Shown: positions 11,512 to 64,000, counted from the first letter of the stretch. The stretch: DNA of 64,000 bases from Bacteroidales bacterium (GCA_965230045.1 OZ245940.1:1679403-1743402); one strand, 5' to 3'. The notes: generated by a model not told the origin, from the letters alone. Numbers and translations are program-made.

Positions 11512-12849
11512 ATGAAGGATCTGACCTCAGGTAATGTAGGCCGCCTTATCTTAAATTTTGCTATGCCCATGCTCCTGGGCAATGTTTTCCAGCAATTGTA
11601 CAGTATTGTGGACAGCATTATCGTAGGGAAATATCTGGGCACGGAAGCATTGGCAGCAGTCGGTGCGTCCTTTCCAATGATTTTTACCCTGATTTCTTTT
11701 GTTATCGGAATCGGTTCGGGTTTTACCATTGTGATCAGCCAGTATTTTGGGGCAAAACAAATGGAGAACGTAAAGCGCTCGATTGACACCTTATATATAT
11801 TCCTTTTGATCGCTTCGACACTTGTTACCCTGATCGGGATATTTTTTGCCAAACCCATATTGGAACTTACGCGCTTGCCCGAAGAAGTATTGCCATTGGC
11901 AGTTACTTACCTGCAGGTATATTTTGCCGGAACCATCACTTTTTTTGGTTTTGCCGGAACTTCCGCAATACTGCGTGGTTTGGGCGATTCAAAAACACCT
12001 TTGTATTTTTTGGTAATTTCCACCCTGGCCAATATTGCTTTCGATCTTTTGTTTGTCCTTGTGTTTGATTTTGGCGTGGAAGGAGTGGCCGCAGCTACCG
12101 TGATTTCGCAAGCCGGAGCCTTTTTTACGCTGGCTTTTTACCTGAACCGTAAGCACGAAATCCTGCGCATCAACTGGCGGAAATATGTTTTTGACCGGCC
12201 TATCTTTAAAAAAGCATTAAAAATTGGCGTTCCAACAGGCTTTCAGCAAACTTTTGTTGCCCTGGGGATGATGGCGCTTTTTGGAATCGTCAATACTTTT
12301 GGAACAGAAACGGTTGCCGCTTACACCATCGCCATGCGCATCGATGGTTTTGCCGCGATGCCGGCCATGAACTTTGCTGCTGCTTTGGCTGCTTTTGTGG
12401 GACAAAATATCGGCGCCAATAAATTCCAACGTGTTCGTTCCGGACTTACGGCTACTTTTATGATGACTGCTGTAGTTTCGCTAGCCGTCAGCCTGATTTC
12501 CTTCTTTTTCAGGAGGGAACTGATCGGTGTGTTTACCAATAATGCCGAAGTTATTGAGCTGGGTCAACGTTATCTGTTGATAGTCAGCTGGTTTTATATT
12601 ATTTTTTCCAGCATGTTTGTTGTAAACGGAGTCATGCGCGGGGCGGGGGATACCTTGATCCCCATGTTTATTACGCTCACCGCATTATGGATCGTACGTG
12701 TTCCGATGTCGTATTATTTTGCCGGAAAAATCGGCATTGACGGAGTTTGGTGGGCCATTCCCGCTGCCTGGGGCGTGGGCCTGGGGCTCAGCTATATTTA
12801 TTACCTCACGGGTAAATGGCGTTCCAAAGCTGTTGTTAAGGCAGAGTGA
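11512..12849 (+). CDS. MATE family efflux transporter
   Basis: 445 aa, ~12 TM segments, with the typical N-terminus (..LILNFAMPMLLGNVFQQLYSIVDSIIVGKYLG). Confidence 0.9.
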   Translation: MKDLTSGNVGRLILNFAMPMLLGNVFQQLYSIVDSIIVGKYLGTEALAAVGASFPMIFTLISFVIGIGSGFTIVISQYFGAKQMENVKRSIDTLYIFLLIASTLVTLIGIFFAKPILELTRLPEEVLPLAVTYLQVYFAGTITFFGFAGTSAILRGLGDSKTPLYFLVISTLANIAFDLLFVLVFDFGVEGVAAATVISQAGAFFTLAFYLNRKHEILRINWRKYVFDRPIFKKALKIGVPTGFQQTFVALGMMALFGIVNTFGTETVAAYTIAMRIDGFAAMPAMNFAAALAAFVGQNIGANKFQRVRSGLTATFMMTAVVSLAVSLISFFFRRELIGVFTNNAEVIELGQRYLLIVSWFYIIFSSMFVVNGVMRGAGDTLIPMFITLTALWIVRVPMSYYFAGKIGIDGVWWAIPAAWGVGLGLSYIYYLTGKWRSKAVVKAE

Positions 12850-44658: not shown

Positions 44659-44727
44659 AATTTGATATTGCTTTTGGGTATTATTGAAGCAGTCAGGAAA
44701 CCGAAACATTTCCCGACTGCTAAAGTG

Positions 44728-45216
44728 TTAATTATTAATTACATTGAAAGTCCGGGTTCCGATTGAATGGTTTTTATCAGCTAATTTCAGGAAATAACTG
44801 CCCGTAGGATAATTTTGCAAATTCAATTTATATTGCCCCATGCCATTGGAAAGCATAATGGCATCCATAATTTTTCCATTGGCATCATATACGGTCAGTA
44901 AGGCGCTGTTTTTCAATTCTGAGAAACGGATGTTGAGCTTTTCTGTTGCAGGGTTTGGATAAACGCTAAGCTTTGGTGTGTATTTTTCAGCTATTTCCAG
45001 CTTTCTGTATTTCTCAAAAGGGTCTTCTGCATTGCCCGATTTAAAACCTTCATCCTTTAGGTAAAGCGGTTCGGAATATTCTATGGCTTTTGCCGTAAGC
45101 AGTATGTTGCGGGCATAGGTAGCCGCTAAACTGTTGGGATCATGGCCAATCTGCATCAGGTTTTGCCGGATGAGGGGGAAGACTTTATTTGATATTATCG
45201 GGTCTGTATTCATCAT
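44728..45216 (-). CDS. Short ORF ending in a T9SS type-A CTD but lacking a signal peptide (possible gene remnant)
   Basis: 162 aa. The C-terminal half (SVYPNPATEKLNIRF..LTVYDANGKIMD..GSYFLKL) looks like a CTD. The N-terminus (MMNTDPIISNK..) is not signal-like. Confidence 0.45.
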   Translation of the reverse strand: MMNTDPIISNKVFPLIRQNLMQIGHDPNSLAATYARNILLTAKAIEYSEPLYLKDEGFKSGNAEDPFEKYRKLEIAEKYTPKLSVYPNPATEKLNIRFSELKNSALLTVYDANGKIMDAIMLSNGMGQYKLNLQNYPTGSYFLKLADKNHSIGTRTFNVINN

Positions 45217-45442
45217 AGCAAAAGTTTAATTTATCACCCCAAACTGCTGTGCTCCTACAAAATCATTCCCACAAACGACCTGCAAAATATAGTTCCCGCT
45301 TTTGTAGCCCTCCAAAGATAAAATATATTCTTCTGTGCCCTGTGGCAATGGATAAGTGGCCAGCATCCTGCCTTGCAGGTCGAAAACAAGCAGCTCGCCT
45401 TTTTCTGGCAGGGCTTCAAAATGGATGTTGATCTGCCCTTGG

Positions 45443-45630
45443 GCCGGGTTGGGTGCTATTTGTATTTTGTTTTCCGGCTTTTTGGGCAGCTCACCCGTGG
45501 CTGTGGTAATAATAAAATCCTCCGCATAAAACTCTACCGCCCCGCTGCTGATGCCGCCCGGGCACCAGGGGTCGTAATGGTTGGTGTCGGTTTGCAGGCT
45601 GTCGTATTCCAGATCGGAATTGAGTTTGAA
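45443..45630. repeat. 188-bp conserved block, copy in paralogue B
   Basis: See 43262..43449. Confidence 0.85.
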
Positions 45631-46483
45631 AAGTACGGTGGTGGGGATTGTGTTCTCATCAAATTCATAACCAAAAAACAGGAACTTATCATCCGGTGTT
45701 TTGGCTACGTGCGGCGGTATTCCTTTATTATCATCTATTAGCATTTTGGTTTTAATAATTTTTGCGCTGGTATCCAGTTTAACGGCCAGCCTTTTGCCGT
45801 AATATTCAAAATAAGGCAGAGTGTCTGCTGTGGTATCTTTGGGCCACCATCTCCCTGAGGCAATTAAAATGGAATCATTGAGCAGTGCACCGGAATAGTA
45901 CTGAGTATTAGTGTAACCATCAAACTCAAAACTGCGGTTGTTTTTGATATTGTGCCCCGAAATATCGTAGCGGAAAAGGGTAGGGCTGCTGAAGTTTTGG
46001 AACAAATGTTCGCCCAGCCCGATAAACTCATTGCCTTCTTCTAATAATAGGATTTTATCAATATTTACCGGTGAAACCGTATCTTTGGTGCGGGGCACAT
46101 GATCCCAGGCCAGCCTGCCGGAATTGTTAATCCGTGCTACAAAAGGGCTTCTTTGCCAAAACATATAGCGGATCTGGTAATAACAATCTCCGCCCCCAAT
46201 AATATCGCCTGAGGGCAGCACCTCTATATCCCTGATGTAGGGTGCGCCTGTATTGGTATCGCTTGCAAATGAGGGCACAGGGCAGTTCCAGATCAATTCG
46301 CCCTGGGGGCTGTATTTGAGGATATTGCACTTTGTCAGTGATTCGTCAGGAAAAATGTCGCGCATCAGTGCAATAAGGTTGCCATCTTTGGCAAAGGCAA
46401 TATCGTATCCATGTGCGTTATAGTCAGGGCTGTCATACATAAGCCCCCATTCTTTTTCGCCCAATGGATTTAGTTTAAAAATG

Positions 46484-48127
46484 GTAACTAATCAGTCTGC
46501 AAATTAGCGATAGTTCCCAAAGCAGGCACAACACTCTGTCCATTCTTGATAATTGTGTCAGTAACTGATCTCAAAACAGCAAAGGCATCCGCTCCTTCGG
46601 TCGATCTGAATTGACCTGAAACTTTCTGTTTTACTTTTATGTTTCGGATTGCCCTTTCAGAAGCATTATTGTCTGGCGGGACTTCTGGGTGATATAAGAA
46701 GGTGAAGATATAGTCCCTGTATTTGACGAGCCTTTTTTTGAATGCAAGCAATTCGTTGTGTTTTTCCGGCAGTTCTGCTTTCAGTAAACTGTTCAGCCTG
46801 TTTTCAATTGCGTTCCTCTTTGGGTTATGTACGTAGCAGCCCGCATTGTCCATTTTTTTCTTCAAATCCAGTGCCGTTTGAAACAGCCGTTTGCATATCC
46901 TGCTCCATTTATGCCCATACCTTTCTGACAAGTAATTCAGGTCACGTAAAAGATGTGCCATACAAATCTGGTGCGACAGCGCAGCAGTATTAAAATGGCT
47001 CTTCCAGCAATCATGTACCAACACAGAGTTTTTAAACCCATCTTTAAATGTATTGCCAATGCTCCTCTGTGCCCTGTTGTCAGTGATGGTAATGAATGTA
47101 GCCTCTTGGTTTTGCCATGTCCATGCCCAGTGCTTATTGCCATCAACCTTAACTCCTGTCTCATCACTTCCTACAGAAAAACAATATCCTCCCGAAAGCA
47201 ACTTTTGCTTTATTAGGTCATAGGCTGGTTGGGCCTTACGCTTTAGTTTATTGAGCAAATAATGGATGCCCCCTTCGCTTATGGGAACGTGGAAAACATC
47301 CCTGAAAAGTTCTTTCATACGCAGAAAGGGCAGGTACTGCCTGGTATGGAAATACCCGATCAAACTTTCAATGTTGTTCCCATAGCTTACCGGGGCATTG
47401 GCCTGAGATGGATAATCACACTTGGTTTCATGGCCACAACTGCAAACCTTTTTATATACCCGGTGTTCTGTGACATGTAACTTTATCTCGGGAATATCAA
47501 ATACCTGGCGTTTACCGGCTAATTGTACGGGCAAAGAAGCAAGGTCTTTTCCGCAACACTTGCAATATGAGGGGATGTGCTTCTCAATAGTGTCAGGCAC
47601 TTGGGCCATCTTAAGTGTGTTTCCTTTCCGCCCTGCCTGTCCGCCTGGCTTACGCCCTGTCTTTTCCCTCAAACTCCTGCGCTTAGGGCGGTTCTGATCT
47701 TGGGAGGGAGGTATTGAGCTGTTGTTGCTGTTTTTTGGTGTTTGGTATTTGGCAAGCTTTTCTTTGAGTTTTTTGTTTTCCAACTCAAGGGCTTCCAGTC
47801 TTCTTTCAAGCTGGCCGATCCTTTTGAAAAGCTCTTGTATAATGAAATCTTTGTCCAAAACTTTTTTCTTTCAAAAGTAGTGTAGGTTGGAGGCAAAAGT
47901 CAAATTACCAGCGGTTTAGTTACGAACACAGGAAACAGCAAATTGTGAACAGCCAATGATTTTTGAAAAATACCCCAAGGAGAACCCAATATTTAAACCC
48001 GAAATCCAAAGGCAAACAAATAGCAAAATCACAGAGCCTTTAAACGCATCAACCCCAGAAAGTTATTCACAAGCCACAGCGAAAATTGTTAATAAGGATT
48101 GATTTTTTTCTGACACTGATTAGTTAC
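46484..48127 (-). mobile_element. IS66-family insertion sequence, single-ORF type (1644 bp)
   Basis: TIRs GTAACTAATCAGT.. at both ends (IS66-like 5'-GTAA). Perfect 8-bp TSD TAAAAATG (46476-46483 and 48128-48135). Contains one transposase ORF. Confidence 0.9.
46488..47858 (-). CDS. IS66-family transposase (TnpC-like)
   Basis: N-terminal leucine-zipper-like coiled coil (LERRLEALELENKKLKEKL), a Cys-rich region (CKCCGKDL, CSCGH) and a long DDE-type core. Only a TTG start is available in frame. Confidence 0.88.
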   Translation of the reverse strand: MDKDFIIQELFKRIGQLERRLEALELENKKLKEKLAKYQTPKNSNNSSIPPSQDQNRPKRRSLREKTGRKPGGQAGRKGNTLKMAQVPDTIEKHIPSYCKCCGKDLASLPVQLAGKRQVFDIPEIKLHVTEHRVYKKVCSCGHETKCDYPSQANAPVSYGNNIESLIGYFHTRQYLPFLRMKELFRDVFHVPISEGGIHYLLNKLKRKAQPAYDLIKQKLLSGGYCFSVGSDETGVKVDGNKHWAWTWQNQEATFITITDNRAQRSIGNTFKDGFKNSVLVHDCWKSHFNTAALSHQICMAHLLRDLNYLSERYGHKWSRICKRLFQTALDLKKKMDNAGCYVHNPKRNAIENRLNSLLKAELPEKHNELLAFKKRLVKYRDYIFTFLYHPEVPPDNNASERAIRNIKVKQKVSGQFRSTEGADAFAVLRSVTDTIIKNGQSVVPALGTIANLQTD

Positions 48128-48545
48128 TAAAAATGAATGGATTTTTATAGGAGGAAGTATAGCTATAGAATGAGCCGATTCCATAAATATTCCCTGCAGA
48201 ATCCTGTATGCTATTGTGTATGGCGTTTTTTGTTTCCTGGCCGTCTATGGCGTAAATGTGTATTTCCTTTTCCCATAATATATTGCCATTGATATCGGTT
48301 TTTGCAATAATACCCATTATGTACTGTCCTTGGCTGTATAGGTTATAAGTAAGCAAATAACCTCCGTCTTTGCATATATAAATATCCTCGGCAGCAGTGC
48401 TATATTGAATCTGGCGTTTCCATGTGTAATCCTGCTGGGCTGCTAATAGAAACGGACATGCTATGATAATAAGTATGAAAAATTTGTTCATGATTTGAAG
48501 TATTGGAAACAGGGAGCTGTAAGCTCCCTGTTTTGATTGAAGAAT

Positions 48546-50165
48546 TTATTTAATGATGCTGAATTGCCGGGCATCCACCAAAGTATTATTGCAATATAGC
48601 TGTACAATATATGTTCCGGCAGGGTAGGTTCCAAGGCTTAAAGTGTACTTATGAGTGCTTTCTGTAATGATTATCCTGTCCATTAACTGGCCTTTTTGAT
48701 TGAAGATATTCAACTGTTTATCCCCGGGACAATGTTCAAAACTAATGTTTATATGCTCCTTTGCCGGGTTGGGTGCTATTTGTATTTTGTTTTCCGGCTT
48801 TTTGGGCAGCTCGCCCGTGGCTGTGGTAATAATAAAATCCTCCGAATAAAACTCCACAGCCCCGCTGCTGATGCCGCCCGGGCACCAGGGGTCGTAATGG
48901 TTGGTGTCGGTTTGCAGGCTGTCGTATTCCAGATCGGAATTGAGTTTGAAGAGGGCTAAATAATGTAAGGAATCTTCATCGTAATCCATTCCTAAAAACA
49001 GGAACTTATTGTCAGGTGTTTTTGCGGTATAGATAAATGGATTATTCGGGTAATAAACAAGGCTCTTGATTTTTTGTATCTCTCCACTCGTATCTACTTT
49101 AACGGCTAAACTTTGTCTGCTATAATCCAGGTATTCCAGTGTGTCCGGATAGTCATAACCAGGCCACCAAACCGCTGAACAGATAAGCGTTTGGTTGTTT
49201 AGGGGTACAGCATCATAGAATAGTGCCTTGCTATATCCATGCTGTTTAATGGAAATATTATTTGCAATCCTATTGCCATAATAATCATAGATGTAAAGCG
49301 CAGGGCTTGTGCTTATTGAAGTATTTGATTCTCCCAATCCAATCATAATGTTGTTGTCTGGAAATATTACTGAGTTAAACGAACTTCCCATGAAAAATGT
49401 GTCTTGAACCTCAGGTAACCAAGTGTTAATTAATTTGCCTGAATTATCTATAAAACAATAGCACGGTACGGAAACATAACCAATCTGTTCGTTCCCATAC
49501 CATCCATCTCCACAGGCTATTACACCGTTTTCTCCTGTCGCTTCAATTCTTTCAAAGAGAGGATAGAGATACATGGTGTCAATATGTATTCCGGGAATTG
49601 GAGTCCTCCAAAGAATTTCTCCACCTTTTGAATATTTGAATATGGAGTAAGTTGCTGAATCCATGAATGCAGGAACATTATTGTATAATGCATAAATAAA
49701 ACCATTAGGGCTTAGTGTTAAATCTCTACATTGATCGGCATGATTAGGTGTTTGACTGCTTATTGCCCAGATTTTTTCAAATGATGGGCTTAATTTAATC
49801 AATAATGGATTTGGATTTGCTCTAGTGTTTAATTGTTGTGTCATTCCTGACATATAGTATGATCCTGAGCTATCTTGATAGCAATTATCTATAATTGTTG
49901 TAGCCCGAAGGTCATTCTCATCTCTGGTTATTATTTCTTTCACCCAAAGAGTGTTTCCATTAATATCAGTTTTTGAAATAAATGCTCTTTGCAATGAGTT
50001 GCTGTGGTGTTTGTAGGTCATGAGATACCCTCCATCAGGACAAATAGATAGATTTTGTGCCTTTCCATTTTGCATATACAATCTTCGCCAGACGGAATCT
50101 CCCTGAGCGTGAATAAGAGAACTGAGAATAAGTCCAAAAAAGATGAATAGAATGTTCTTTTTCAT
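48546..50165 (-). CDS. T9SS-secreted paralogue C
   Basis: Signal peptide MKKNILFIFFGLILSSLIHAQ. Same architecture as paralogue A but with a different CTD sequence. ATG 50165 is preferred to the track start at 50207. Confidence 0.75.
   Translation of the reverse strand: MKKNILFIFFGLILSSLIHAQGDSVWRRLYMQNGKAQNLSICPDGGYLMTYKHHSNSLQRAFISKTDINGNTLWVKEIITRDENDLRATTIIDNCYQDSSGSYYMSGMTQQLNTRANPNPLLIKLSPSFEKIWAISSQTPNHADQCRDLTLSPNGFIYALYNNVPAFMDSATYSIFKYSKGGEILWRTPIPGIHIDTMYLYPLFERIEATGENGVIACGDGWYGNEQIGYVSVPCYCFIDNSGKLINTWLPEVQDTFFMGSSFNSVIFPDNNIMIGLGESNTSISTSPALYIYDYYGNRIANNISIKQHGYSKALFYDAVPLNNQTLICSAVWWPGYDYPDTLEYLDYSRQSLAVKVDTSGEIQKIKSLVYYPNNPFIYTAKTPDNKFLFLGMDYDEDSLHYLALFKLNSDLEYDSLQTDTNHYDPWCPGGISSGAVEFYSEDFIITTATGELPKKPENKIQIAPNPAKEHINISFEHCPGDKQLNIFNQKGQLMDRIIITESTHKYTLSLGTYPAGTYIVQLYCNNTLVDARQFSIIK
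48763..48950. repeat. 188-bp conserved block, copy in paralogue C
   Basis: See 43262..43449. Confidence 0.85.
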
Positions 50166-50490
50166 AAGGATACTGTATTGGATATATGTTATAATATTGA
50201 ATTCCAAAATAATTTTATCGTAAATTAATCCTTAAACTCTCTTTAATGACAATACTTTTGTTGTTGGTATATTTACTTAGACTCTGGTGGGTTTTTGGGG
50301 TTGCTTATCAAATGATTATATTTGATCGACCGGAAAAATTGTCATAAAAAATTAGTATAAAACCCATAAAACGGCCATAATGTCATAATAATGAGTGTTT
50401 TATATAGCGTCCATGTCCATTTTGTCTTCTTTTTCCTATTGGTTTGCTTTTTGATCTGTGGCCGTATGAAAATTTGAAAGGAGAAGACAA

Positions 50491-54258: not shown

Positions 54259-56241
54259 ATGTCGAAATGCATACGTAAATACACTCTTCTGCTATTTTTG
54301 TTGATATTCAGTAAAATGGCTTTCTCGCAGGTCAATTATGAATATTTTCTTGCAGTGGGAAGGCACTCCCTTTTTGAGGGCCGTTATACCGAAGCCATCA
54401 GTTTTTTAAATACCGCCATCCGTGTGAAGCCACAGCTTTATGAAGCCTGGCTCTTTCGGGGGATTGCAAAATATAATCTGGGTGATTATCAGGGCGCGGC
54501 TGACGATTTTGGGAAATCCCTGGAAATCCATCCGCTCTACGTTCATGCTTTTCATTATCGCGCTATTGCGCATAATAAACTGAACCAGTACCAAAAAGCC
54601 CTGCAGGATTATGAGCGGGCAGCCGAGATCGACCCGCTGAACGCAAATATCTACATCAACCGTGGTGTGACCAAACTTTCATTGCACGATTATAAAGGCG
54701 CTTTGACCGATTATAACCTGGCTTTGCAGCTCGAGCCTGATAATTACACGGCTTATATGAACCGCTGTGTGGTGAAGGGCATCATCAAAAACTACCAAAG
54801 TGCCATCGAAGACTGTAGTAAAGCAATCCGTCTCAACCATTTTTACTATGATGCCTTCCTGCGCCGTGGGATGATCCGCTATGATATGGAGCAGTACGAT
54901 CTGGCCATCGAAGATTACAATTATGCCTTACGGATCAATAAAGATGATCCGGTGGTCTTTTTTAACCGGGCTCTGGCGCGTTTGAAGCAGGGCGATACAC
55001 TTTCCGCTTTGAGCGATTATGGAACGGTGCTGGATTTTGATCCCTACAATGCCCTGACCTATTACAACCGCGCCATCTTGTTTTCCAGTATGAAGCGTTT
55101 TGACCTGGCGTTATCCGATTATGCCAGTGTGCTGAAAATCAATCCCGAAAATATTTATGCGCTCTACAACCGGGGCTGTGTGCTTTTTGAAGAAGACCGT
55201 TATTACGAAGCTGCCGCAGATTTCAGCAAGGCCATCGACCTTTTTCCTGATTTTGCCAATGCCTGGATGAACCGTTCATCATGCAAAAGCCATATGAACG
55301 ATGCTTACGGAGCGCGAGAGGATTATAACAAAGCCATGGAAATCATGCAAAAACAAGGCGACAATCCCGATAGTGCTTATCTTGCTGTGGCCGATTCGGC
55401 CCATTTGCGCAGGATTATCGAATTTGAATCAGATTTCCAGAATGCCAATCTGGTGGATGGCCGCGTGCAGTATCAGCGCATATATATCGACCTGAAACCA
55501 AACTATCAGATTACTTTTTTCCTGACGGATAAAGATTATGTGGAAAGCAAACGCAATGAATACTGGGATAAAAGTTTCTCCGATTTCAATAAAAGCAATA
55601 AGCTGAAAATGAGTTTTGGAATTACCAATGAGCGCATGCACCACAGTATTGATCAGGTGATTTCCAGCATTGATGATATGTCGGAACTGCCACGCGATGC
55701 TGCCCACTCGCCCGAAGCCGCCCTTTTTGAAGGTGTGCTCAACGGCATCATTCAGAATTATAATACCGCTTTGCTGGCCTACGATACCGCCATTGCCCGC
55801 GATACCGCATTTGCTTTTGCCTGGTTTAACCGGGCCAATACGCGCTATGAACTGCAGGAGTATATCATTGAGCAGGAACGCAAAGAGCGGATTTCGATCG
55901 GTACGCCTGTGGGCGATGAGGATGAAGCCGAAAAGCGTGCACTCGATTATGAAAAAATCCTTTCTGATCTCGATAAAGTGCTCAGTCTGGAGCCTGAATT
56001 TGCGCCCGCATGGTTTAACCGCGGAAATATCTATGCGCGCAAAAGAAATTATGAAACAGCCATCAATGATTTTTCTAAAGCCATTGAGCTGGAACCAAAT
56101 TTTGGCGATGCCTATTTTAACCGTGGCCTGACCCGGATTTTTATGGGCGAAAAAGAAAAGGGCTGCAACGATTTGAGCAAAAGCGGTGAGTTGGGTGTTT
56201 CGGATGCATATAGTGTGATTAAACGCCATTGCACGAAATAG
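54259..56241 (+). CDS. Tetratricopeptide-repeat protein with signal peptide
   Basis: Many TPR units (..A..Y.RG.....G.Y..A..D...AL.L.P..) . Met14 (54259) gives the signal peptide MSKCIRKYTLLLFLLIFSKMAFSQ. Confidence 0.85.
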   Translation: MSKCIRKYTLLLFLLIFSKMAFSQVNYEYFLAVGRHSLFEGRYTEAISFLNTAIRVKPQLYEAWLFRGIAKYNLGDYQGAADDFGKSLEIHPLYVHAFHYRAIAHNKLNQYQKALQDYERAAEIDPLNANIYINRGVTKLSLHDYKGALTDYNLALQLEPDNYTAYMNRCVVKGIIKNYQSAIEDCSKAIRLNHFYYDAFLRRGMIRYDMEQYDLAIEDYNYALRINKDDPVVFFNRALARLKQGDTLSALSDYGTVLDFDPYNALTYYNRAILFSSMKRFDLALSDYASVLKINPENIYALYNRGCVLFEEDRYYEAAADFSKAIDLFPDFANAWMNRSSCKSHMNDAYGAREDYNKAMEIMQKQGDNPDSAYLAVADSAHLRRIIEFESDFQNANLVDGRVQYQRIYIDLKPNYQITFFLTDKDYVESKRNEYWDKSFSDFNKSNKLKMSFGITNERMHHSIDQVISSIDDMSELPRDAAHSPEAALFEGVLNGIIQNYNTALLAYDTAIARDTAFAFAWFNRANTRYELQEYIIEQERKERISIGTPVGDEDEAEKRALDYEKILSDLDKVLSLEPEFAPAWFNRGNIYARKRNYETAINDFSKAIELEPNFGDAYFNRGLTRIFMGEKEKGCNDLSKSGELGVSDAYSVIKRHCTK

Positions 56242-56363
56242 AGTTCGTCTATAAAGTCCAACTTCTGCGTTGTTGCTCAAAATCTAAATCCTCATCCCGT
56301 AACTACGGGACTGCGGTTTAGATTTTTCACACGCCTTGAATTTGAACTTTATAGAGCAAACTC
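56241..56363. repeat. Palindromic intergenic module, type A (123 bp), inverted relative to 40244..40364
   Basis: Starts at the last base of the TPR gene's stop codon. The central stem AAATCTAAA / TTTAGATTT differs from AAATCCAAA / TTTGGATTT in the other copy by a compensatory pair. Confidence 0.8.
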
Positions 56364-56389
56364 TCGAGTTTATAGGCAAGGACGAAATA

Positions 56390-56533
56390 GTTTCTGTCCA
56401 TAATGCCCGATCTCAGCGTTACTTTGGTATGGAAACCAGTCATCCCGTAGAGACGGGACTCCTTGTTTCCAGCAAAAGAAATGCCTCGACCTCGAACATT
56501 CTGAACCAGAAACACGAGTTTATGGACAAGGAC
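56390..56533. repeat. Palindromic intergenic module, type B, uninterrupted (144 bp)
   Basis: Its reverse complement aligns with 40371-40441 plus 40794-40903. It serves as an empty-site reference for the MITE insertion. Confidence 0.75.
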
Positions 56534-56670
56534 GCTACAGGCAGGGTGTCTGGAACCCGAACATGCTGGATAAAAAATTTAATCCAGAATAAAATGAATG
56601 TTTTCCTGTTGGAAATGACATTCCAAAAAAAATTGATTCACCGGATGCGTTCCGGCTTTAAAAATGAAAT

Positions 56671-58305
56671 ATGATTAGAATTGAAGAAATAAATCTCTTT
56701 GTAGGACAAAACAGGGAGCTTTTGATAGATCGGATATGTAAGATCTTTTCCCTTGAACCAGAGGATATCACGGAAGTGCAAATCGTAAAAAAGGCAGTGG
56801 ATTCCAGGAATAAAAAGCGGATTTTGTTGGTTTATTCGCTTGATGTTTCATTGGTTGATGATGATCAAGTCCTTGAAAAATGGAATGCGAAGGCGGAGAA
56901 GGATGAGGATTTTGCTAAAGTGATGCAACGCCACCGTGTGCGCAAAGCAGATGTTTTTCATTTTCAGATTTTAGTGCCCGACCGCAAACCGGAACACCGG
57001 CCTGTGATTGTGGGCAGCGGTCCTGCGGGATTGTTTGCAGCGCTTTATCTGGCCAAAGCCGGATTGCGTCCCGTCATTCTTGAACGCGGAAAAAAAGTGG
57101 AAGAACGTGGGGATGATGTGGAAGGATTTTTCCGTGGCGGTGAGCTGGATACAGAGTCCAATATCCAGTTTGGCGAAGGCGGCGCAGGAACCTTTAGTGA
57201 TGGCAAACTCTATACGCTCATCAATGATCCGCGCACAGATTATATTTTTCGGGAATTCCATGCGGCAGGAGCTCCGGCAGAAATTCTCTATGATGCCAAA
57301 CCGCATATCGGGACGGACATCCTGCGGAAGGTGGTGAAAAATATGCGCGACAAAATTATTTCCCTGGGCGGCGAATTCCGTTTTCAAAGCCAGATGACAG
57401 ATATCCGCATCAAAGACGGACAGGTAAATTCGGTTCTGATCGGTCGTGAGGAAGAAATTCCGGCCAATATCCTGATCGCTGCGGTAGGACATTCAGCACG
57501 CGATACCTTTGAGCTTTTCCATCAAAAGGGCATCGAAATGCAGTCCAAAACATTTTCGATTGGTGTGCGTATCGAGCATGAACGGGAATTTATCGATCAA
57601 TCGCAATACGACCGTTTTGCCGGACATCCCGATTTGCCCACAGCACGTTACAAACTCAGTCACCGTTTGAAAAACGGGCGCGGGGTTTATACCTTTTGCA
57701 TGTGCCCGGGAGGTTTCGTTGTAGCTGCCGCCAGCGAAAAGCATCATGTGGTAACCAATGGCATGAGTTATTACGCTCAGGACAATTTCAATTCCAATGC
57801 CGCCATCCTGGTCAATGTGCGTCCCGGCGATTTCGGTTCCAACCATCCGCTGGCAGGCGTTAACTTCCAGCGCAAATGGGAGTCCAAAGCCTATTCGCTT
57901 GCACGGGGACATTATCGCGCCCCGGTGCAGAAAGTAGGCGATTTTATGAAAGACAAAGTTTCCAAAGGATTTGGCGCTGTAAAACCGACCTATCGCCCGG
58001 GAACGTTTTTCGTAAACCTCAAAGACTGCCTGCCGCCTTATGTGACCAATGGCATAAAATCGGGCTTGAAAGCATTCGATCGTAAAATTCCCGGATTTGC
58101 ACAGGGCGATGCGCTGCTGACCGGCATTGAAAGCCGCTCGAGCAGCCCGCTGCGCATATTACGCGACGATCATTGCGAATCTTCTGTAAAAGGCTTTTTT
58201 CCTGCCGGGGAAGGTGCGGGATATGCCGGAGGAATCGTTTCATCAGCTATTGATGGTTTGCACGTTGCCGAAGCCGTGGTGCAGAAAGTGCAGGAGGGAG
58301 TGTAA
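56671..58305 (+). CDS. FAD-dependent protein (uncharacterised NAD(P)/FAD oxidoreductase family)
   Basis: Dinucleotide motif VIVGSGPAGLFAALYLAKAG. 544 aa. Confidence 0.85.
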   Translation: MIRIEEINLFVGQNRELLIDRICKIFSLEPEDITEVQIVKKAVDSRNKKRILLVYSLDVSLVDDDQVLEKWNAKAEKDEDFAKVMQRHRVRKADVFHFQILVPDRKPEHRPVIVGSGPAGLFAALYLAKAGLRPVILERGKKVEERGDDVEGFFRGGELDTESNIQFGEGGAGTFSDGKLYTLINDPRTDYIFREFHAAGAPAEILYDAKPHIGTDILRKVVKNMRDKIISLGGEFRFQSQMTDIRIKDGQVNSVLIGREEEIPANILIAAVGHSARDTFELFHQKGIEMQSKTFSIGVRIEHEREFIDQSQYDRFAGHPDLPTARYKLSHRLKNGRGVYTFCMCPGGFVVAAASEKHHVVTNGMSYYAQDNFNSNAAILVNVRPGDFGSNHPLAGVNFQRKWESKAYSLARGHYRAPVQKVGDFMKDKVSKGFGAVKPTYRPGTFFVNLKDCLPPYVTNGIKSGLKAFDRKIPGFAQGDALLTGIESRSSSPLRILRDDHCESSVKGFFPAGEGAGYAGGIVSSAIDGLHVAEAVVQKVQEGV

Positions 58306-58309
58306 GCCT
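58264..58309 (+). repeat. 46-bp direct repeat, left copy (putative attL core)
   Basis: GTTGCCGAAGCCGTGGTGCAGAAAGTGCAGGAGGGAGTGTAAGCCT is identical to 63752..63797. It covers the last 13 codons and stop of the FAD-dependent gene. Confidence 0.9.
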
Positions 58310-58469
58310 ATTTTTAAAGAGTGTAAAACCGGGCATGTACATCCTGCAAACCGAAAAGGAAGTATTGGATGTTGTTTCTGCTTTTCGGGCATAATGACTT
58401 TAAGGTTTGGTTTTGGGTGGTTTTCGTTCTCATTATTCCTGATTTATTCAGAGGGAGTATTTGTTTTTA

Positions 58470-58928
58470 CTAATCAATGGATAGGCTGTCAATTACTGCA
58501 ATAATGTCTTTCAAATCACGGTCTTTCCATTGATTAATTCTACTTTCCATTATTTCTGCAATATATTTATCTTGGTTTTTAAAAACCAATGTGTTTTTCG
58601 CAGATAAATGACCAACTCTTTGTTTGTAGTACTCATATTTAAGCAAATAATACGGAATAGAAGCTGAACGTTTCCAGAAGATATATCTATAATAGAATAT
58701 AGTGCATAACTGCTTATTGTCTGAAAATATAACTTTATAAACCACTCTGCCTTTGTTGCGACTTATCACTAATATGATAACAAAAAGAACAACTAACTGA
58801 ATACCTATCCAATGCGTATAAAAAAATGAAGCTCCTTTAGCAATAAAAACAAAATTTACGATTGGCAAGTAGTTCAATTCTGAGTTGTACTTACTGTACC
58901 AATAAAATTTTTTTTCGAATATCTTCAT
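58470..58928 (-). CDS. Hypothetical membrane protein (2 TM plus ~90-aa soluble domain)
   Basis: 152 aa with ATG start. AT-rich coding sequence inside the islet. No recognisable motif. Confidence 0.5.
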   Translation of the reverse strand: MKIFEKKFYWYSKYNSELNYLPIVNFVFIAKGASFFYTHWIGIQLVVLFVIILVISRNKGRVVYKVIFSDNKQLCTIFYYRYIFWKRSASIPYYLLKYEYYKQRVGHLSAKNTLVFKNQDKYIAEIMESRINQWKDRDLKDIIAVIDSLSID

Positions 58929-59348
58929 AAATCTAATGTTTGCCCGGACTTTTTTTTATTTACTGTATGAAATACTACAATAGTGCTTTCTATGCATGTA
59001 TCTTAGCTTTTGGATATTCCGGACTAAGCTGACCCACCCGACCGGCTGAAATAAACAGCAATAAAAAGCCATCAAAGACTGCCAATCCGGCGGATACTGA
59101 CCCCCTAAAACGGAAGAAGGCTCTTCAAGCACCCAGATCCGGGGCATGTTGACCCTTTTTCATGAGACAAGGATGGAGAAAACCGGAGCATGTTGACCCA
59201 CTTTCAGTGGAGCACTGGCAGAATTCCGGAGCATGTTGACCCACTTTGGAAAGGTGCAACATAAAATTCCGGAGCATATTGACCCTTTTTTTGTCACTTT
59301 TTCGTGAAGTTTCGGTATTAGCCAGCTATAACCAACACAAAGAATGCG

Positions 59349-60920
59349 ATGGCCGGTAAACCCAAACCCATGAGTCAGATAAAACAATTATTGAGGATGC
59401 ACAAGCAGGGCAATAAACACAGGACTATTGCCCGTAACCTTGGCATAAGCAAAAACACAGTAAAGAGCTATTTAAAGAAAGCAGGTGCGCTTAGCCAGAG
59501 CACCACTCAGCTACTAAAGCTCGAAGACCCTGAGCTGGAAGCCCTCTTCCATGCAGGCAGCCCTGCTTATAAGGATGAGCGCTACCAGCACCTTAAAGAC
59601 AGGCTTGGCCATTATGCCCGGGAATTGCAAAAAACAGGAGTGACGCGCCTTTTGCTATGGGAGGAATACAAAGAAACCACAGCTAAGCCATATGGCAAGA
59701 CCCAGTTCTGCTACCATCTCTCCCAGTACCTGTCGGCTAAAAAGCCATCGATGGTTTTGCACCACAAACCTGCTGAGAAACTTTTTGTGGACTTTACAGG
59801 CAAGACCATTTGCTATACCGACCCAAAGACAGGCGAGCTGATCAGCTGTCAGGTTTTTGTAGCCTGCCTGCCCTATTCCGATTATGGCTTTGCCATTGCA
59901 GTGCCCAGCCAAAGCAGCCAGGACTTCCTTTATGCACTAAGGCGCTGTTTGGAACACCTGGGCGGGGCCCCACAGGTATTGGTGCCCGACAACCTCAAAT
60001 CTGCTGTTAACAAAGCAGACCGCTATGAGCCCGATATCAACCGCAGTATGGAAGATTTTGCAAACCATTATGGCTGCACTATATTTCCTGCCAGGGCATA
60101 TAAGCCCAAAGACAAAGCCCTTGTGGAGAACCAGGTAAAACTGGTGTACCAGCGCGTTTTTGCAAAGCTCAGGGACCAGGTGTTTTTTAGCCTCGATGAG
60201 CTTAACAGCGCCATAGCAACAAAGGTAGAACAGCACAACCAGACCCGTATGCAGCAAAAGCCATGGTGCCGCCAGGAGCGTTTCCTTGCAGATGAAAAGA
60301 ACAAACTGGAGCCCCTTCCACAGCAGCCCTATGAGCAAAAATATTACTGTTCGCTCAAAGTGGCACAAAACAACCATATTTACCTTGGCCGTGACAAGCA
60401 TTACTACAGTGTGCCTTATCAACATATCGGCCAACAGGCCAAGGTTATCTATACCCGCAATACCGTGGACATATATTTGGAACAAAAGCTTATAGCGGCA
60501 CACCTGCGCAATTACAAACAGGGCGGATACTCTACCTGCAAGGAACATTTATGCCCCGCCCACAAACACCACCTTGCGCGCAGCCCACAGTACTATCTTG
60601 ATAGGGCCATGGAGCACAGCCAGAACCTGCACAGGCTCTTTACATTGATGTTCGGCCGCCCTGACCGCTATGCCGAACAGCTCTACAAAAGCTGCGACGG
60701 GCTGCTAATGCTTTGCCGTACAAGCGATAAGGCCGCTTTTGAATCTGCCTGCCGCATGGCAATTGACAATGAAGTATTTACCTACAAATTTATATCCAAC
60801 ATACTCACAAACAAAACTGCTGGCCAACAAGGCGGTGCGCCACAAAAAGCACTGCCCAGGCACGGCAATATACGGGGCAAAGAATATTATACAAAACAAC
60901 AGTTAACCCTTAATATCTGA
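59349..60920 (+). CDS. istA: IS21-family transposase IstA
   Basis: 523 aa with an N-terminal HTH (RTIARNLGISKNTVKSYLKK) and a DDE integrase core. Confidence 0.92.
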   Translation: MAGKPKPMSQIKQLLRMHKQGNKHRTIARNLGISKNTVKSYLKKAGALSQSTTQLLKLEDPELEALFHAGSPAYKDERYQHLKDRLGHYARELQKTGVTRLLLWEEYKETTAKPYGKTQFCYHLSQYLSAKKPSMVLHHKPAEKLFVDFTGKTICYTDPKTGELISCQVFVACLPYSDYGFAIAVPSQSSQDFLYALRRCLEHLGGAPQVLVPDNLKSAVNKADRYEPDINRSMEDFANHYGCTIFPARAYKPKDKALVENQVKLVYQRVFAKLRDQVFFSLDELNSAIATKVEQHNQTRMQQKPWCRQERFLADEKNKLEPLPQQPYEQKYYCSLKVAQNNHIYLGRDKHYYSVPYQHIGQQAKVIYTRNTVDIYLEQKLIAAHLRNYKQGGYSTCKEHLCPAHKHHLARSPQYYLDRAMEHSQNLHRLFTLMFGRPDRYAEQLYKSCDGLLMLCRTSDKAAFESACRMAIDNEVFTYKFISNILTNKTAGQQGGAPQKALPRHGNIRGKEYYTKQQLTLNI

Positions 60921-60924
60921 TATT

Positions 60925-61644
60925 ATGATGCAAATAGGACCACAACTTAAAAGCTTGCGCCTAAACGGGATGTCCTCCGCATGGCAGGCATTGATGGAAT
61001 CAGGCAGGCTAAACGAGCTGAGCTTTGGGGAGGGCATGAAAATACTCCTTGAAGCAGAAAAACAACAACGCGAACAGAACCGTTTTGAACGGCTGCAGAG
61101 AAATGCGCGCTTCCGCTACCAGGCATCTTTGCAGGAAGTCAGTACAGACCAGGCCCGCGGGCTTGGCAAAGACTTGCTGGCGAGTCTGGCAACAGGCAAT
61201 TACCTGCAAAAAGGCCAGTCCATATTGGTCACCGGCCCAACCGGATGCGGAAAAAGCTTCCTGGCCTCGGCTTTGGGGCACCAAGCATGCCTGCAGGGAT
61301 ATAAAGTAGCCTACTATAACATGCAAAAGCTGCTGAAAAAAATTAAAATTGCACGCCTTGAAGGAACGGCCTTTAAATTTTTTGAAACCACAGCCAAAAC
61401 AGACCTGCTCATACTCGACGACTTTGGAATGGCCCGGCTGGAACAAAAGCAACAAATTGATTTTATGGAGATTATAGAAGACCGCCATGCCCGGAAATCA
61501 ACAATTATTGTCAGTCAGCTACCTGTGGCAAGCTGGTTCGATATCATTGGTGAAGCTACTATTGCCGATGCAATATTGGACCGTTTGGTACATACTTCCC
61601 ACAGAATTGAATTAAAAGGAGACAGTTTAAGAAAAATTAGGTAA
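60925..61644 (+). CDS. istB: IS21-family helper ATPase IstB
   Basis: Walker A GPTGCGKS and Walker B LLILDDFG. 239 aa. Confidence 0.92.
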   Translation: MMQIGPQLKSLRLNGMSSAWQALMESGRLNELSFGEGMKILLEAEKQQREQNRFERLQRNARFRYQASLQEVSTDQARGLGKDLLASLATGNYLQKGQSILVTGPTGCGKSFLASALGHQACLQGYKVAYYNMQKLLKKIKIARLEGTAFKFFETTAKTDLLILDDFGMARLEQKQQIDFMEIIEDRHARKSTIIVSQLPVASWFDIIGEATIADAILDRLVHTSHRIELKGDSLRKIR

Positions 61645-61744
61645 TATTGTCAGGCAATCGCGTTCTTTAAAAACTTTACGAATCAGACGGGTCAATATCA
61701 CCGGATTGGTGGGTCAGTATGACCGGAATATGCAAGCTTTTGAT

Positions 61745-62011
61745 TTATAAAGCAGTTTTATTAAGCAGGCAATACAAAAAAGAAATGAAATTAATCACGA
61801 TAAAGGCATAAATTCCAATACTGTAATAAGATGTTTTTCTGTATTGTGAAATATATTGGTAAAGAACAAGACTTAATAAACCAGATGTAAATATTTGTAG
61901 GACAACTCCATTTATTGATAAAACAAAATTAATCTCTGTGTTGCACATATTAATGGAAAATGAAATACAAATTAATGCAGCTATAAAAAGTTTTTTTTTC
62001 ATTTTGATCAT
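61745..62011 (-). CDS. Small hydrophobic protein (hypothetical, ~3 TM)
   Basis: 88 aa with ATG start. AT-rich. Lies 27 bp downstream of higA on the same strand. Confidence 0.4.
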   Translation of the reverse strand: MIKMKKKLFIAALICISFSINMCNTEINFVLSINGVVLQIFTSGLLSLVLYQYISQYRKTSYYSIGIYAFIVINFISFLYCLLNKTAL

Positions 62012-62038
62012 TTTTTTATACTCTTTTAACAGTATTGT

Positions 62039-62389
62039 TTAAGCCAGCAATACATCAGCCGGGATTTTCAGGTCCTTGTACAGGTTTTTGATCATATTTA
62101 AGGTTAAGCCCCTTTTGCGGTTTAGTATTTCGCTAACCCTGCTTTGACTGCCCAGATACTTAGACATATCTGCATTCGTCAATCCCATCTGTTCCATACG
62201 GAATTTAATGGCATCAACAGGGTCAGGTGGGGCAATTGGATAATGTTTTAGTTCATATGATTCTACCAATGTGAGTAATAAATCCAATTCATCACCTTCG
62301 GGACTGTCTTTTAAAGCGCCCCATAATTCTTCAATCCTGCTGATGGCAAGCTGATAATCTTTTTCTGTTTTTATGGGTTTTATGTTCAT
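62039..62389 (-). CDS. higA: HigA-family antitoxin (HTH)
   Basis: 116 aa. N-terminus IKTEKDYQLAISRIEELW, C-terminal HTH (ADMSKYLGSQSRVSEILNRKRGLT). Lies 3 bp downstream of the toxin gene. Confidence 0.85.
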   Translation of the reverse strand: MNIKPIKTEKDYQLAISRIEELWGALKDSPEGDELDLLLTLVESYELKHYPIAPPDPVDAIKFRMEQMGLTNADMSKYLGSQSRVSEILNRKRGLTLNMIKNLYKDLKIPADVLLA

Positions 62390-62392
62390 AAT

Positions 62393-62692
62393 TTAAATTG
62401 TTTTTGCATCAATTTTATCGTACTGTTTATGAGTTCCAATAAATCTTATAAAAAGAGCCTGAAAATCATAATCTACTGCAACCACTAATCTGTATTTATT
62501 GCCTTTAATATTGAAAACTACCCTGTTGTTACCTATAATACTTGCATTCTTAAACTGATATTTAAGGTCATTTGAGTTTTTCCATTCAGCTGATTTGGCT
62601 TCATGATACCATGCTCGCAATGAAACTTCAGAATCAGAATATTCTTGTTTTTCAAAAAACTCACGTAATGTCCTGAAGGCAATAATCCTCAT
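62393..62692 (-). CDS. higB: HigB-family type II toxin (mRNA interferase)
   Basis: MRIIAFRTLREFFEK..FNIKGNKYRLVVAVDYDFQALFIRFIGTHKQYDKIDA. ATG 62692 is preferred because the track start at 62707 is a TTG. Confidence 0.85.
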   Translation of the reverse strand: MRIIAFRTLREFFEKQEYSDSEVSLRAWYHEAKSAEWKNSNDLKYQFKNASIIGNNRVVFNIKGNKYRLVVAVDYDFQALFIRFIGTHKQYDKIDAKTI

Positions 62693-62825
62693 AATGCAAA
62701 TATACAAAACAAATAAGGGCTTTTCCCAAATTGGGATATTTTTCTGGTGCCTCCATAATATTTACCTCCACAAATTTACTCCTCAATCACTCCTCTGCGA
62801 TTTTTTCTTCCGCTTTGTATATTCC

Positions 62826-62858
62826 ACTCATCGGATGACCCAAAGTCATCCGATGAGT
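62826..62858. repeat. Hairpin ACTCATCGGATGAC-CCAAA-GTCATCCGATGAGT, just downstream of the second TA operon
   Basis: Perfect 14-bp stem. Its core CATCGGATGAC/GTCATCCGATG is shared with the hairpin at 63801..63835. Confidence 0.8.
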
Positions 62859-62866
62859 AACTTAAC

Positions 62867-63238
62867 TTAGAATAAGTGTGGGCGTTTATTGTTGATTTCG
62901 TCAGTTTTCTGATTGTAAGGTGGATGCGAAGGATATGTTGTTGGAAGGGTGCTCTGTTCCTTTTGAATAAAGGATTTTTTGCTCACAAATTCAAATACCG
63001 GAAACATATCTATTTTAAGAGCAATTTCAATTATTTTTTCAATGCTGAAATTTATGTCCCCATCATTGAGGATTTGGGAAACCCTTCCCTTGCTGATGCC
63101 TAAATGACTGGCGAGTCTTGTGCGGTTTAATTTGTTTTGCTCCATATACTGAACAATAGCATTATAAAGTTGCCCGTTTATTCCTTCAATCCAATATGCT
63201 GGCTGGTTTAATATTTTCTCCCTCTTATGGTTTATCAT
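62867..63238 (-). CDS. XRE-family HTH antitoxin
   Basis: HTH LNRTRLASHLGISKGRVSQILND. 123 aa. Overlaps the upstream toxin gene by 14 bp. Confidence 0.75.
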   Translation of the reverse strand: MINHKREKILNQPAYWIEGINGQLYNAIVQYMEQNKLNRTRLASHLGISKGRVSQILNDGDINFSIEKIIEIALKIDMFPVFEFVSKKSFIQKEQSTLPTTYPSHPPYNQKTDEINNKRPHLF

Positions 63239-63620
63239 CTTGATAATCTTTGATTGTTCGTATAATTGACTTTAAATCAGATTTTTGATCGTCTTTTAAT
63301 CCTCCGCTTACAATTATTCTGCCTGTTTTTTCTTCATGAAAAAGATAAATTCTGATAATTCCCGATTTAGCTTCATATAGCTTGCAATTTAAGCTGTGAC
63401 CCTGGATTTCCCTGAATTTATTTTTTGGCCTTCGGTTTAAATTGGAAGTATCTTCAATAATTCTGATAGCTCCAGCTAAATTGTTGAGCAGGTTTCCATC
63501 TTTTTCAATTTCATCAAAGAACATTTCGAACAGACTACGATCGTTTTTGCACAGCTCAAATACCTTTATTTTAGTGGTATTTACAATATGCCGGGACAAT
63601 ATTAACGAAAATTTTTTCAA
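63225..63620 (-). CDS. RelE/HigB-superfamily toxin, phage Gp49-like
   Basis: 131 aa. ..KFREIQGHSLNCKLYEAKSGIIRIYLFHEEKTGRIIVSGGLKDDQKSD pattern. Toxin-first order as in HigBA. Confidence 0.65.
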   Translation of the reverse strand: MKKFSLILSRHIVNTTKIKVFELCKNDRSLFEMFFDEIEKDGNLLNNLAGAIRIIEDTSNLNRRPKNKFREIQGHSLNCKLYEAKSGIIRIYLFHEEKTGRIIVSGGLKDDQKSDLKSIIRTIKDYQDDKP

Positions 63621-63751
63621 AATGTTTAGTTATATCTAAATTATTTTTTGATTTTTCCAGTTTCTACTTTGTGATTGGGGCATTAAGCCCTACAATTACA
63701 AAGATATCAATTATTGCTATTATAGAGGTAATTTCATCCGCTGTTGATCGC

Positions 63752-63797
63752 GTTGCCGAAGCCGTGGTGCAGAAAGTGCAGGAGGGAGTGTAAGCCT
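63752..63797 (+). repeat. 46-bp direct repeat, right copy (putative attR core), with a relic gene tail
   Basis: Identical to 58264..58309. It is preceded by ~25 bp of diverged in-frame similarity (..ISSAVDR|VAEAVVQKVQEGV*). Confidence 0.9.
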
Positions 63798-63800
63798 TGT

Positions 63801-63835
63801 CATTCATCGGATGACTCGAAGTCATCCGATGAATG
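63801..63835 (+). terminator. Strong hairpin CATTCATCGGATGAC-TCGAA-GTCATCCGATGAATG, probable original terminator of the FAD-dependent gene
   Basis: 15-bp perfect stem located 3 bp after the right repeat copy. No T-tract. Confidence 0.6.
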
Positions 63836-64000
63836 AGCCCACAACTCAATCATGAAAAATCAACAAAGGGTCCGGCTTACTGTACTCCACCGCCTGCGTG
63901 GTATCCGAATTCTTGCAGCCCTGTACATCCGTAACCTCCACAATTACGCTCAGCGTGGTGTCCGCATAAAAGCTGGTGTCTGTTGAACCGTTTTGCCAGA

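Follow-up and report, generated by a model that had tools for sequence, protein, structure and literature searches.

An islet of toxin–antitoxin and predicted immunity genes behind an FAD-dependent gene of an environmental Bacteroidales bacterium is a composite of three insertions

The 64,000-nt stretch of DNA analyzed here (hereafter the window) comes from an uncultured Bacteroidales bacterium of an environmental lineage (GCA_965230045.1 OZ245940.1:1679403-1743402) and holds, between a gene for a flavin adenine dinucleotide (FAD)-dependent protein and a convergent gene, an AT-rich islet of toxin–antitoxin (TA) pairs and small genes. A preliminary description took this islet to be one 5.4-kb element inserted at the 3' end of the FAD gene. 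We compared the site with that of its relatives, namely three Bacteroidales metagenome-assembled genomes (L001-L003; FAD protein 98% identical) found in a scan of representative genomes and two short contigs from cluster members. Empty sites among these relatives confirm that DNA was inserted at the gene's 3' end, but not as one element: L003 and L140 carry the TA pair next to the convergent gene (TA2) by itself. Three separate insertions that differ in age make up the islet, and the 47-bp direct repeat around it dates from the TA2 event rather than delimiting a single element. From the left, the window reads FAD gene with its tail (T), module 1 (a 152-aa gene, an IS21 element, an 88-aa gene, HigA, HigB), a tail remnant (T'') and hairpin-1; to the right of hairpin-1 follow TA2, a second tail copy (T'), a spacer, hairpin-2 and the convergent gene. 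The features, by position in the window, are as follows.

56671-58305, plus strand: gene for the 544-aa FAD-dependent protein (PF21688 FAD-depend_C, E = 4.6e-80), the target whose 3' tail is duplicated.
58263-58309, plus strand: left repeat copy (T), made of the FAD gene's last 13 codons, its stop codon and 4-5 nt.
58470-58928, minus strand: gene for a 152-aa protein, predicted from the context of its homologues to be an orphan immunity protein against a Gly-zipper C-terminal domain of RHS toxins.
59011-61734, plus strand: IS21-family element with istA (59349-60920) and istB (60925-61644); rve, Mu-transpos_C_2 and IstB_IS21 domains.
61745-62011, minus strand: gene for an 88-aa small membrane protein (p88), a second predicted orphan immunity gene, whose 83%-identical homologues follow RHS fragments.
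62039-62707, minus strand: higBA pair, with the HigB toxin at 62393-62707 (or to 62692 from an ATG start) and a HigA-like helix-turn-helix (HTH) antitoxin at 62039-62389.
62804-62820, plus strand: third, heavily decayed tail remnant (T''), fused to hairpin-1; 13 of its 17 positions agree with the 5' part of T'.
62825-62861, no strand: hairpin-1 ('CTCATCGG...CCGATGAG' subtype), between module 1 and TA2 (-23.8 to -26.6 kcal/mol).
62867-63620, minus strand: TA2 cassette, with the toxin at 63225-63620 overlapping an XRE-HTH antitoxin at 62867-63238 (HTH_37 and HTH_3 domains).
63731-63797, plus strand: right tail copy (T'), with a decayed 5' part (63731-63750) followed by the perfect 47-bp repeat (63751-63797).
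63800-63836, no strand: hairpin-2, with a perfect 17-bp stem (folding energy -27.9 to -31.7 kcal/mol, z about -7).
63846-64000, minus strand: 3' end of the conserved convergent gene, which extends past the window end; its translation ends ...PLLIFHD*, as in L002 11688-13328.

At the level of the window alone, most of the structural description given earlier holds up. The perfect 46-bp direct repeat does span the last 13 codons and stop of the FAD gene; the 46-mer is present in exactly two copies with zero mismatches, where shuffles lead one to expect 0, and a repeat search extends it to a perfect 47 bp (58263-58309 and 63751-63797). The diverged, in-frame stretch with a 6-nt indel before the right copy is likewise present and covers 21 nt, in which T' differs from T by 3 substitutions and a 6-nt deletion (ATT TCA TCC GCT GTT GAT, a two-codon gap and CGC in T'; GTT TCA TCA GCT ATT GAT GGT TTG CAC in T). 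At 4% divergence, 3 substitutions in 21 nt have a probability of about 0.05, to which the deletion is additional, and zero differences over the 47 nt of the repeat a probability of about 0.1-0.2, so that the identity is unremarkable alone. The non-IS interior has a GC content of 0.31-0.33 versus 0.47-0.50 in the flanks and the IS21 element (IS21 0.478; whole window 0.433), and the composition of the islet is clearly foreign. As described, it carries two toxin-first TA pairs, two small open reading frames (ORFs) and an IS21 element, with all six non-IS genes on the minus strand. The reported lack of an integrase also stands: Pfam and NCBIfam scans of all islet ORFs returned the IS21 transposase as the sole DNA-mobility enzyme, with no integrase, excisionase or transfer genes, and neither the islet nor the mid-sized ORFs in the other 58 kb of the window yielded a recombinase. 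Three features had been overlooked, namely the internal hairpin-1, the T'' remnant and the exact limits of the IS21 element with its target duplication. The similarity of T'' to the 5' part of T' is a level of matching reached by only 2 of 1000 shuffles.

The relatives, whose FAD gene orthologues are 96-98% identical to that of the window at the nucleotide level (L001-L003, L139, L140), resolve the islet into layers, with three states found at the site.

Empty state (L001, L002, L139): the tail, a 9-nt spacer, the hairpin and then the 3' end of the convergent gene, exactly as right of the window's right repeat.
TA2-only state (L003): TA2 flanked by two tail-plus-hairpin copies of about 90-110 bp, the right copy sharing the decayed 5' part and the 6-nt deletion seen in the window.
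TA2-only state (L140/L141): TA2 directly after hairpin-1 ('CTCATCGG...GAGTAAC' subtype), with a 26-nt stop-to-hairpin junction that differs.
Composite state (window and L130): 4.5 kb of further DNA separating the stop codon from hairpin-1.

The check proposed in the preliminary description, a search of related genomes for the empty site, is thus answered by three relatives in which the hairpin comes directly after the tail, with the same gene downstream, and the suggestion that the strong hairpin after the right copy was the gene's original terminator agrees with its position directly behind the gene in all three. The interval from the stop codon to hairpin-1 is different in each occupied genome, with 12 nt in L003, 26 nt in L140 and 4.5 kb in the window, where it consists of the 1.8-kb module 1 (higBA and two small genes) and the IS21 element; module 1 is confined to the window and L130. 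The latter contig (8662 bp, ENA ERZ25074352 ctg15609_3x_l) is a fold-back, inverted-duplication chimera of the window islet from the same organism and probably an assembly artifact of a 3x long-read contig. Searches for the exact 46-mer in genome contigs gave 0 matches, which is uninformative as the relatives differ from it by 1-2 bases, and searches of viral contigs for the tail core and for the T'/T junction gave 0 matches each.

The TA2 layer is old. TA2 identity between genomes is 95.0-96.8%, versus 95.4-98.1% for the FAD gene, and L140, which carries TA2, nests among the empty-site genomes. Because TA2 is as diverged as its host gene, its insertion is about as old as the clade, or else the cassette was exchanged within the clade long ago, and for the same reason the empty sites are no proof of recent integration; on grounds of parsimony, they may as well be precise losses via the repeat as ancestral states. 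The repeat copies have moreover been in contact with each other. In L003 both copies carry two substitutions (AAGAAGG) absent from all other genomes, and such lineage-specific changes in both copies require gene conversion or an equivalent exchange between them.

A reading of the diverged stretch of T' as an arm imported from a distant host is not borne out by the FAD orthologues. In the 120 best orthologues, the C-terminus follows the pattern ...SSA(I/V/L)DG(L/I/M)(R/K)... with constant length wherever the region was recovered, and the 'GL' residues of the DG[LIM][RK] motif, deleted in T', are missing in none. The ending ...EAVVxKVQEGV is restricted to this clade and carried by T', and the next relative, 65% identical, ends differently. 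Since orthologues keep 'GL' and the ending is clade-specific, T' is a decayed duplicate of the clade's own tail, and we rejected its derivation from the tail of a foreign orthologue, as no inspected orthologue lacks 'GL'. An origin from the clade's own tail fits both a Campbell-type crossover of a circle carrying tail and terminator and a clade-specialized integrative element. Further marks at the site suggest, though not conclusively, that the slot was used more than once: T'' and the L140 junction look like scars of cassettes gained and lost beside the intact gene, the latter (L140 1788-1815) containing a partial left hairpin arm (TTGTTTATCGG) and, right after it, the six bases GTTGCC with which the 46-mer opens. 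We also observed that the right-hand hairpin of L003 breaks off after ATCGG, as at the L140 junction.

Hairpin-1 lies 5 nt past the TA2 antitoxin stop codon and is of the same subtype in L140, and hairpin-2 recurs unchanged in place and sequence at the empty sites of L002 and L139 and, apart from a flipped loop, at that of L001. Hairpin-2 is most simply taken as the original, predicted bidirectional terminator-like palindrome of the convergent gene pair. Only two copies of the hairpin occur in the 64-kb window. The hairpin core, ATCGGATGAC-N5-GTCATCCGAT, is strongly conserved and present in at least 120 metagenome contigs of environmental, Bacteroidota-like origin (loci L010-L129), in which the outer stems are variable and some copies form clusters. 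Among the matches listed, a gene 3' end lies within 120 nt at 87 of 124 distinct hairpin sites, and 26 of the 124 are located between convergent genes; the abutting genes encode housekeeping enzymes and proteins secreted by the type IX secretion system (Por_Secre_tail in 8 of 91), with no enrichment of TA, HTH or recombinase domains. An Rfam search of 56-64 kb with E up to 1 returned no match, and a literature search for the hairpin sequence yielded only unrelated primer matches and no description. Judged by its sequence and distribution, the hairpin belongs to a generic family of Bacteroidota terminator-like palindromes, and its role here is most simply that of a terminator for convergent genes and part of the duplicated homology. 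A function as a cassette-specific recombination site was rejected, the palindrome being widespread behind genes, with no TA or recombinase enrichment among those next to it, and L124, in which two hairpins lie 3.4 kb apart, was rejected as a second example of the arrangement since it represents an unrelated 309-bp/41-bp tandem-repeat region. A scan for sigma-70 promoters was set aside, as that consensus differs from Bacteroidota promoters.

Several side observations concern the hairpin itself. The core is nested within perfect 30-50-nt palindromes in L042, L050, L051, L066 and L118, and it is clustered in the manner of arrays of bacterial interspersed mosaic elements or repetitive extragenic palindromes in L114, L010, L071 and L085. 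The flipped loop appears when the near-identical empty sites of L001 and L002 are compared (11648-11672 in each; GACTTCGAGTC versus GACTCGAAGTC, an asymmetric loop) and is a signature of palindrome inversion by template switching.

The cargo consists of TA pairs and small genes. HigB matches PF09907 HigB_toxin (E = 6.6e-33) and HigA matches PF01381 HTH_3; at the DNA level the pair has distant matches to annotated plasmid higBA pairs, and plasmid and phage collections held only distant relatives of 65-69% identity. In TA2, the toxin and antitoxin genes overlap by 14 nt. The toxin has no sequence-family match, yet its AlphaFold model (pLDDT, the predicted local distance difference test, 95.4) has as best structural matches Streptococcus pneumoniae TA-module toxin chains, RelE and YafQ, with probabilities of 0.97-1.0 and template modeling (TM) scores of 0.32-0.65, and TA2 homologues are annotated as addiction-module killer or RelE/ParE toxins. 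The model, a confident one, shows a RelE/HigB/YafQ-like fold, and we predict the protein to be a toxin. Both pairs have the type II, HigBA-type layout, with a gene of the RelE superfamily, predicted to be toxic, upstream of an adjacent or overlapping HTH antitoxin gene. TA2 homologues in L131, L135 and L137 have no hairpin and no flanking repeats, and the TA family is therefore not generally a repeat-bounded mobile cassette.

The two small genes were initially described as membrane proteins of unknown function, and the context of their homologues points instead to predicted RHS-toxin immunity genes, orphaned in the window. The 152-aa protein has no Pfam or NCBIfam match and belongs to a tiny family of four clusters. 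In L002, L142 (twice) and L143, one and the same RHS C-terminal domain is immediately followed by a homologue of this protein (62-88% identity); in L002 this Gly-zipper toxin domain ends an ORF with an RHS-associated core (Rhs_assc_core, TIGR03696, E = 1.8e-15). Homologues of p88 (83% identical) are found in L142 and L143, each directly after a different RHS-fragment ORF (397 aa in L142). The assignment of both proteins follows from these four independent RHS contexts, in which homologues directly follow toxin domains or fragments. The closest relatives of both genes (83-88% protein and 86-93% DNA identity) are in a different species, whose FAD orthologue is only 65% identical, which indicates horizontal transfer.

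RHS genes also border the site. Immediately to its right lies a hypervariable array of RHS toxin and immunity genes (L002 11688-15664; L001 and L003 downstream of 12200; past 64000 relative to the window), with three repeated RHS-core segments in L003 spaced about 1.7 kb apart and separated by AT-rich stretches. The convergent gene is 546 aa long in L002 and 543 aa in L130, where it is present in full, and has no Pfam or NCBIfam family match; only its hairpin-proximal 3' 600 nt are conserved between strains (88%).

The youngest insertion is that of the IS21 element. It is flanked by a 6-bp target-site duplication, AGCTTT (59005-59010 and 61735-61740), and its ends are terminal inverted repeats of the form 5'-TG...CA-3'. 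It has the features of the IS21 family: istA encodes a DDE transposase and istB an ATPase, the terminal inverted repeats contain repeated subterminal sites, and the target duplication falls in the 4-8-bp range. Related IS21-family elements lie downstream of p88 in two different species in the same orientation (L142 8380-8670 and L143 14540-14830, compared with window 61487-61745). Shared ancestry of these insertions was rejected: the relics in L142 and L143 lie about 41 nt further out with a terminus of their own and are therefore independent insertions. The short stretch downstream of p88 may be a target hotspot for IS21.

We consider it somewhat more probable than otherwise that the islet arose by serial accretion at a gene-tail/terminator hotspot, followed by homologous recombination, with TA addiction opposing its loss. 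The hotspot would be the stop-codon/terminator junction between the FAD gene and the convergent gene, at the border of the hypervariable RHS array. In an old step, at about the age of the clade, the 0.9-kb TA2 would have entered by a single-crossover, Campbell-type event within tail and terminator, duplicating about 110 bp of tail plus hairpin, the agent being either a site-specific recombinase or homologous recombination. Later, and in the window lineage only, the 1.8-kb module of higBA and two predicted immunity genes was added beside the intact gene, leaving a further decayed tail remnant against hairpin-1, and the IS21 element then inserted into this module. Since then the islet, presumably immobile at present, would have evolved by homologous means: conversion between repeat copies, precise repeat-mediated loss in some lineages, and exchange of alleles between close relatives by way of the conserved flanks. 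The orphan immunity genes may protect against RHS toxins of sibling strains, and the two TA pairs, by penalizing loss, may stabilize the islet.

Several points weigh against this history. The initial insertion is unobserved, and our view covers 64 kb of a 5.1-Mb chromosome, elsewhere in which a site-specific recombinase may be encoded. A simple second Campbell event would require deletions afterwards, given that module 1 lacks a hairpin copy at its left junction and retains just 17 nt of tail at its right one. The comparison comprises six genomes, two of which are short, low-coverage contigs, and the direction of gain and loss is drawn from parsimony and similar divergence levels. The evidence for conversion comes from L003 only, because the 47-bp identity in the window is itself not improbable.

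Cis-mobilizable elements (CIMEs) are defined by the loss of their integration and transfer genes and the retention of attL and attR (PMC5704250), and the islet could be a CIME-like structure that is still mobilizable, its tail repeats being functional attachment sites of a tyrosine recombinase encoded elsewhere by an integrative and conjugative element, an integrative and mobilizable element or a resident gene, which would excise and reintegrate cassettes in trans, or in cis after accretion. Such elements classically show gene-restoring direct repeats of a protein-coding gene's 3' end, with a more diverged arm beyond an identical core; the exactness of the empty sites and the signs of repeated use of the slot beside the gene fit as well. 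The islet further resembles CIMEs and decayed elements at gene 3' ends, of the streptococcal ICESt1/ICESt3 accretion type (PMC5704250), in that repeats of the target gene's 3' end flank the cargo and restore the gene, in its lack of integration and transfer genes, and in tandem accretion at the copy beside the intact gene. Nevertheless, none of the six genomes has a recombinase-bearing element at this site, no element with a cognate integrase was seen there in L001-L003 or L139-L141, the 64-kb window yielded no recombinase, and the repeat core was not found on viral or mobile contigs. TA2 is clade-old with a divergence that tracks its host, the duplication is long, at about 90-110 bp with the terminator counted in, and consists of sequence native to the clade, and the TA2 edges, with 5 nt from hairpin to stop codon, are too compact for the scar of a deleted integrase. 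The oldest unit of the islet is also just a 0.9-kb TA pair, in an environmental Bacteroidales host. We regard a mobilizable CIME-like island as unlikely. A local origin, by tandem duplication of tail and terminator together with shuffling of the RHS array and with no foreign DNA integrated, is highly unlikely in our view. The repeat is the clade's own tail, the immunity genes have RHS-array relatives, one just 1.7 kb from the site in L002, and the neighboring region is hypervariable; against this, nothing in the flanks corresponds to the TA2 and higBA interiors with their 31-33% GC, the right junction matches the empty sites exactly, so that duplication plus deletion would need an exact deletion, and the immunity genes have their closest relatives in a different species, indicating horizontal transfer. 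Orphan toxin/immunity modules of Rhs and contact-dependent inhibition (CDI) systems keep a displaced, truncated gene 3' end downstream of new DNA, and their direct repeats allow recombination. The islet shares with them a displaced 3'-end copy downstream of acquired DNA, but its tail is that of a housekeeping FAD gene rather than of a toxin gene, and its TA and immunity cargo comes without toxin domains.

Chromosomal integron arrays and clusters of attC sites lacking integron-integrases (CALINs) consist of small co-directional cassettes, often TA pairs, each followed by a palindromic element, and the TA pairs stabilize the array. The islet has co-directional, low-GC genes in small cassettes that include TA pairs, a palindrome after each cassette and the newest cassette nearest the anchoring gene, which raises the question of whether its hairpins are attC-like sites at which a dedicated recombinase captures defense cassettes. 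TA and orphan immunity cargo is typical both of chromosomal integrons and of the rAID-1 (recombinase-associated acquired interbacterial defense) clusters of Bacteroidales (Ross et al., 10.1101/471110), which are low-GC, co-directional and horizontally acquired and contain orphan immunity genes against polymorphic toxins, and the islet has the at least two co-directional downstream genes with a GC content of 41% or lower by which such clusters are defined. The defining XerD-like recombinase of rAID-1 is absent, however, as is an IntI recombinase: 5' of the array the islet's neighbors are the tail copy, hairpin-2 and the conserved 546-aa gene. It also has no repetitive intergenic motif and only two immunity genes, directed against RHS rather than type VI secretion system toxins and mixed with two TA pairs. 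Its hairpin has a perfect 17-bp, terminator-like stem without attC-type boxes (no GTTRRRY) or extrahelical bases, comes from a generic palindrome family found behind housekeeping genes, occurs in only two copies in 64 kb and has no Rfam match, and there is no integron integrase or attI. The islet is not an integron array, and an integron-like or rAID-like mechanism of capture seems very improbable. It is also quite unlikely, though less so, that tail and terminator form a reusable capture site, a minimal integron-like "tail-capture" array in which successive defense cassettes enter beside the gene and are later excised; an unlinked recombinase or a recombinase-independent single crossover would then be the agent, and such capture would have left the three tail remnants, the L140 scar and the exact empty sites as its traces.

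These results imply that a repeat-bounded islet without an integrase should not be read as one element, as relatives here resolve three insertions. They extend orphan-immunity islands to RHS toxins and to uncultured environmental Bacteroidales, with no associated recombinase, and offer a concrete example of TA pairs that persist as the last residents of a recombination hotspot. Current understanding is unchanged by them, and they would be more consequential only if the tail and terminator were truly an active capture site.

Two further repeat-bearing regions were seen elsewhere in the window. Upstream of the FAD gene, the intergenic stretch at 56233-56534 contains two diverged copies (about 71-86%) of a unit of ~149 bp, each with a small CCCGTA...ACGGG hairpin; L003 apparently has one copy, and the unit had no Rfam match and was not reported by Tandem Repeats Finder. 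At 43045-50207, an AT-rich region unrelated to the islet, there are three paralogous minus-strand genes for secreted proteins of about 410-555 aa (43042-44709, 45226-46464 and 48546-50207), whose 3' ends are 63-87% identical over a shared 300 nt; a domain scan of one of them, 45226-46464, showed Por_Secre_tail.

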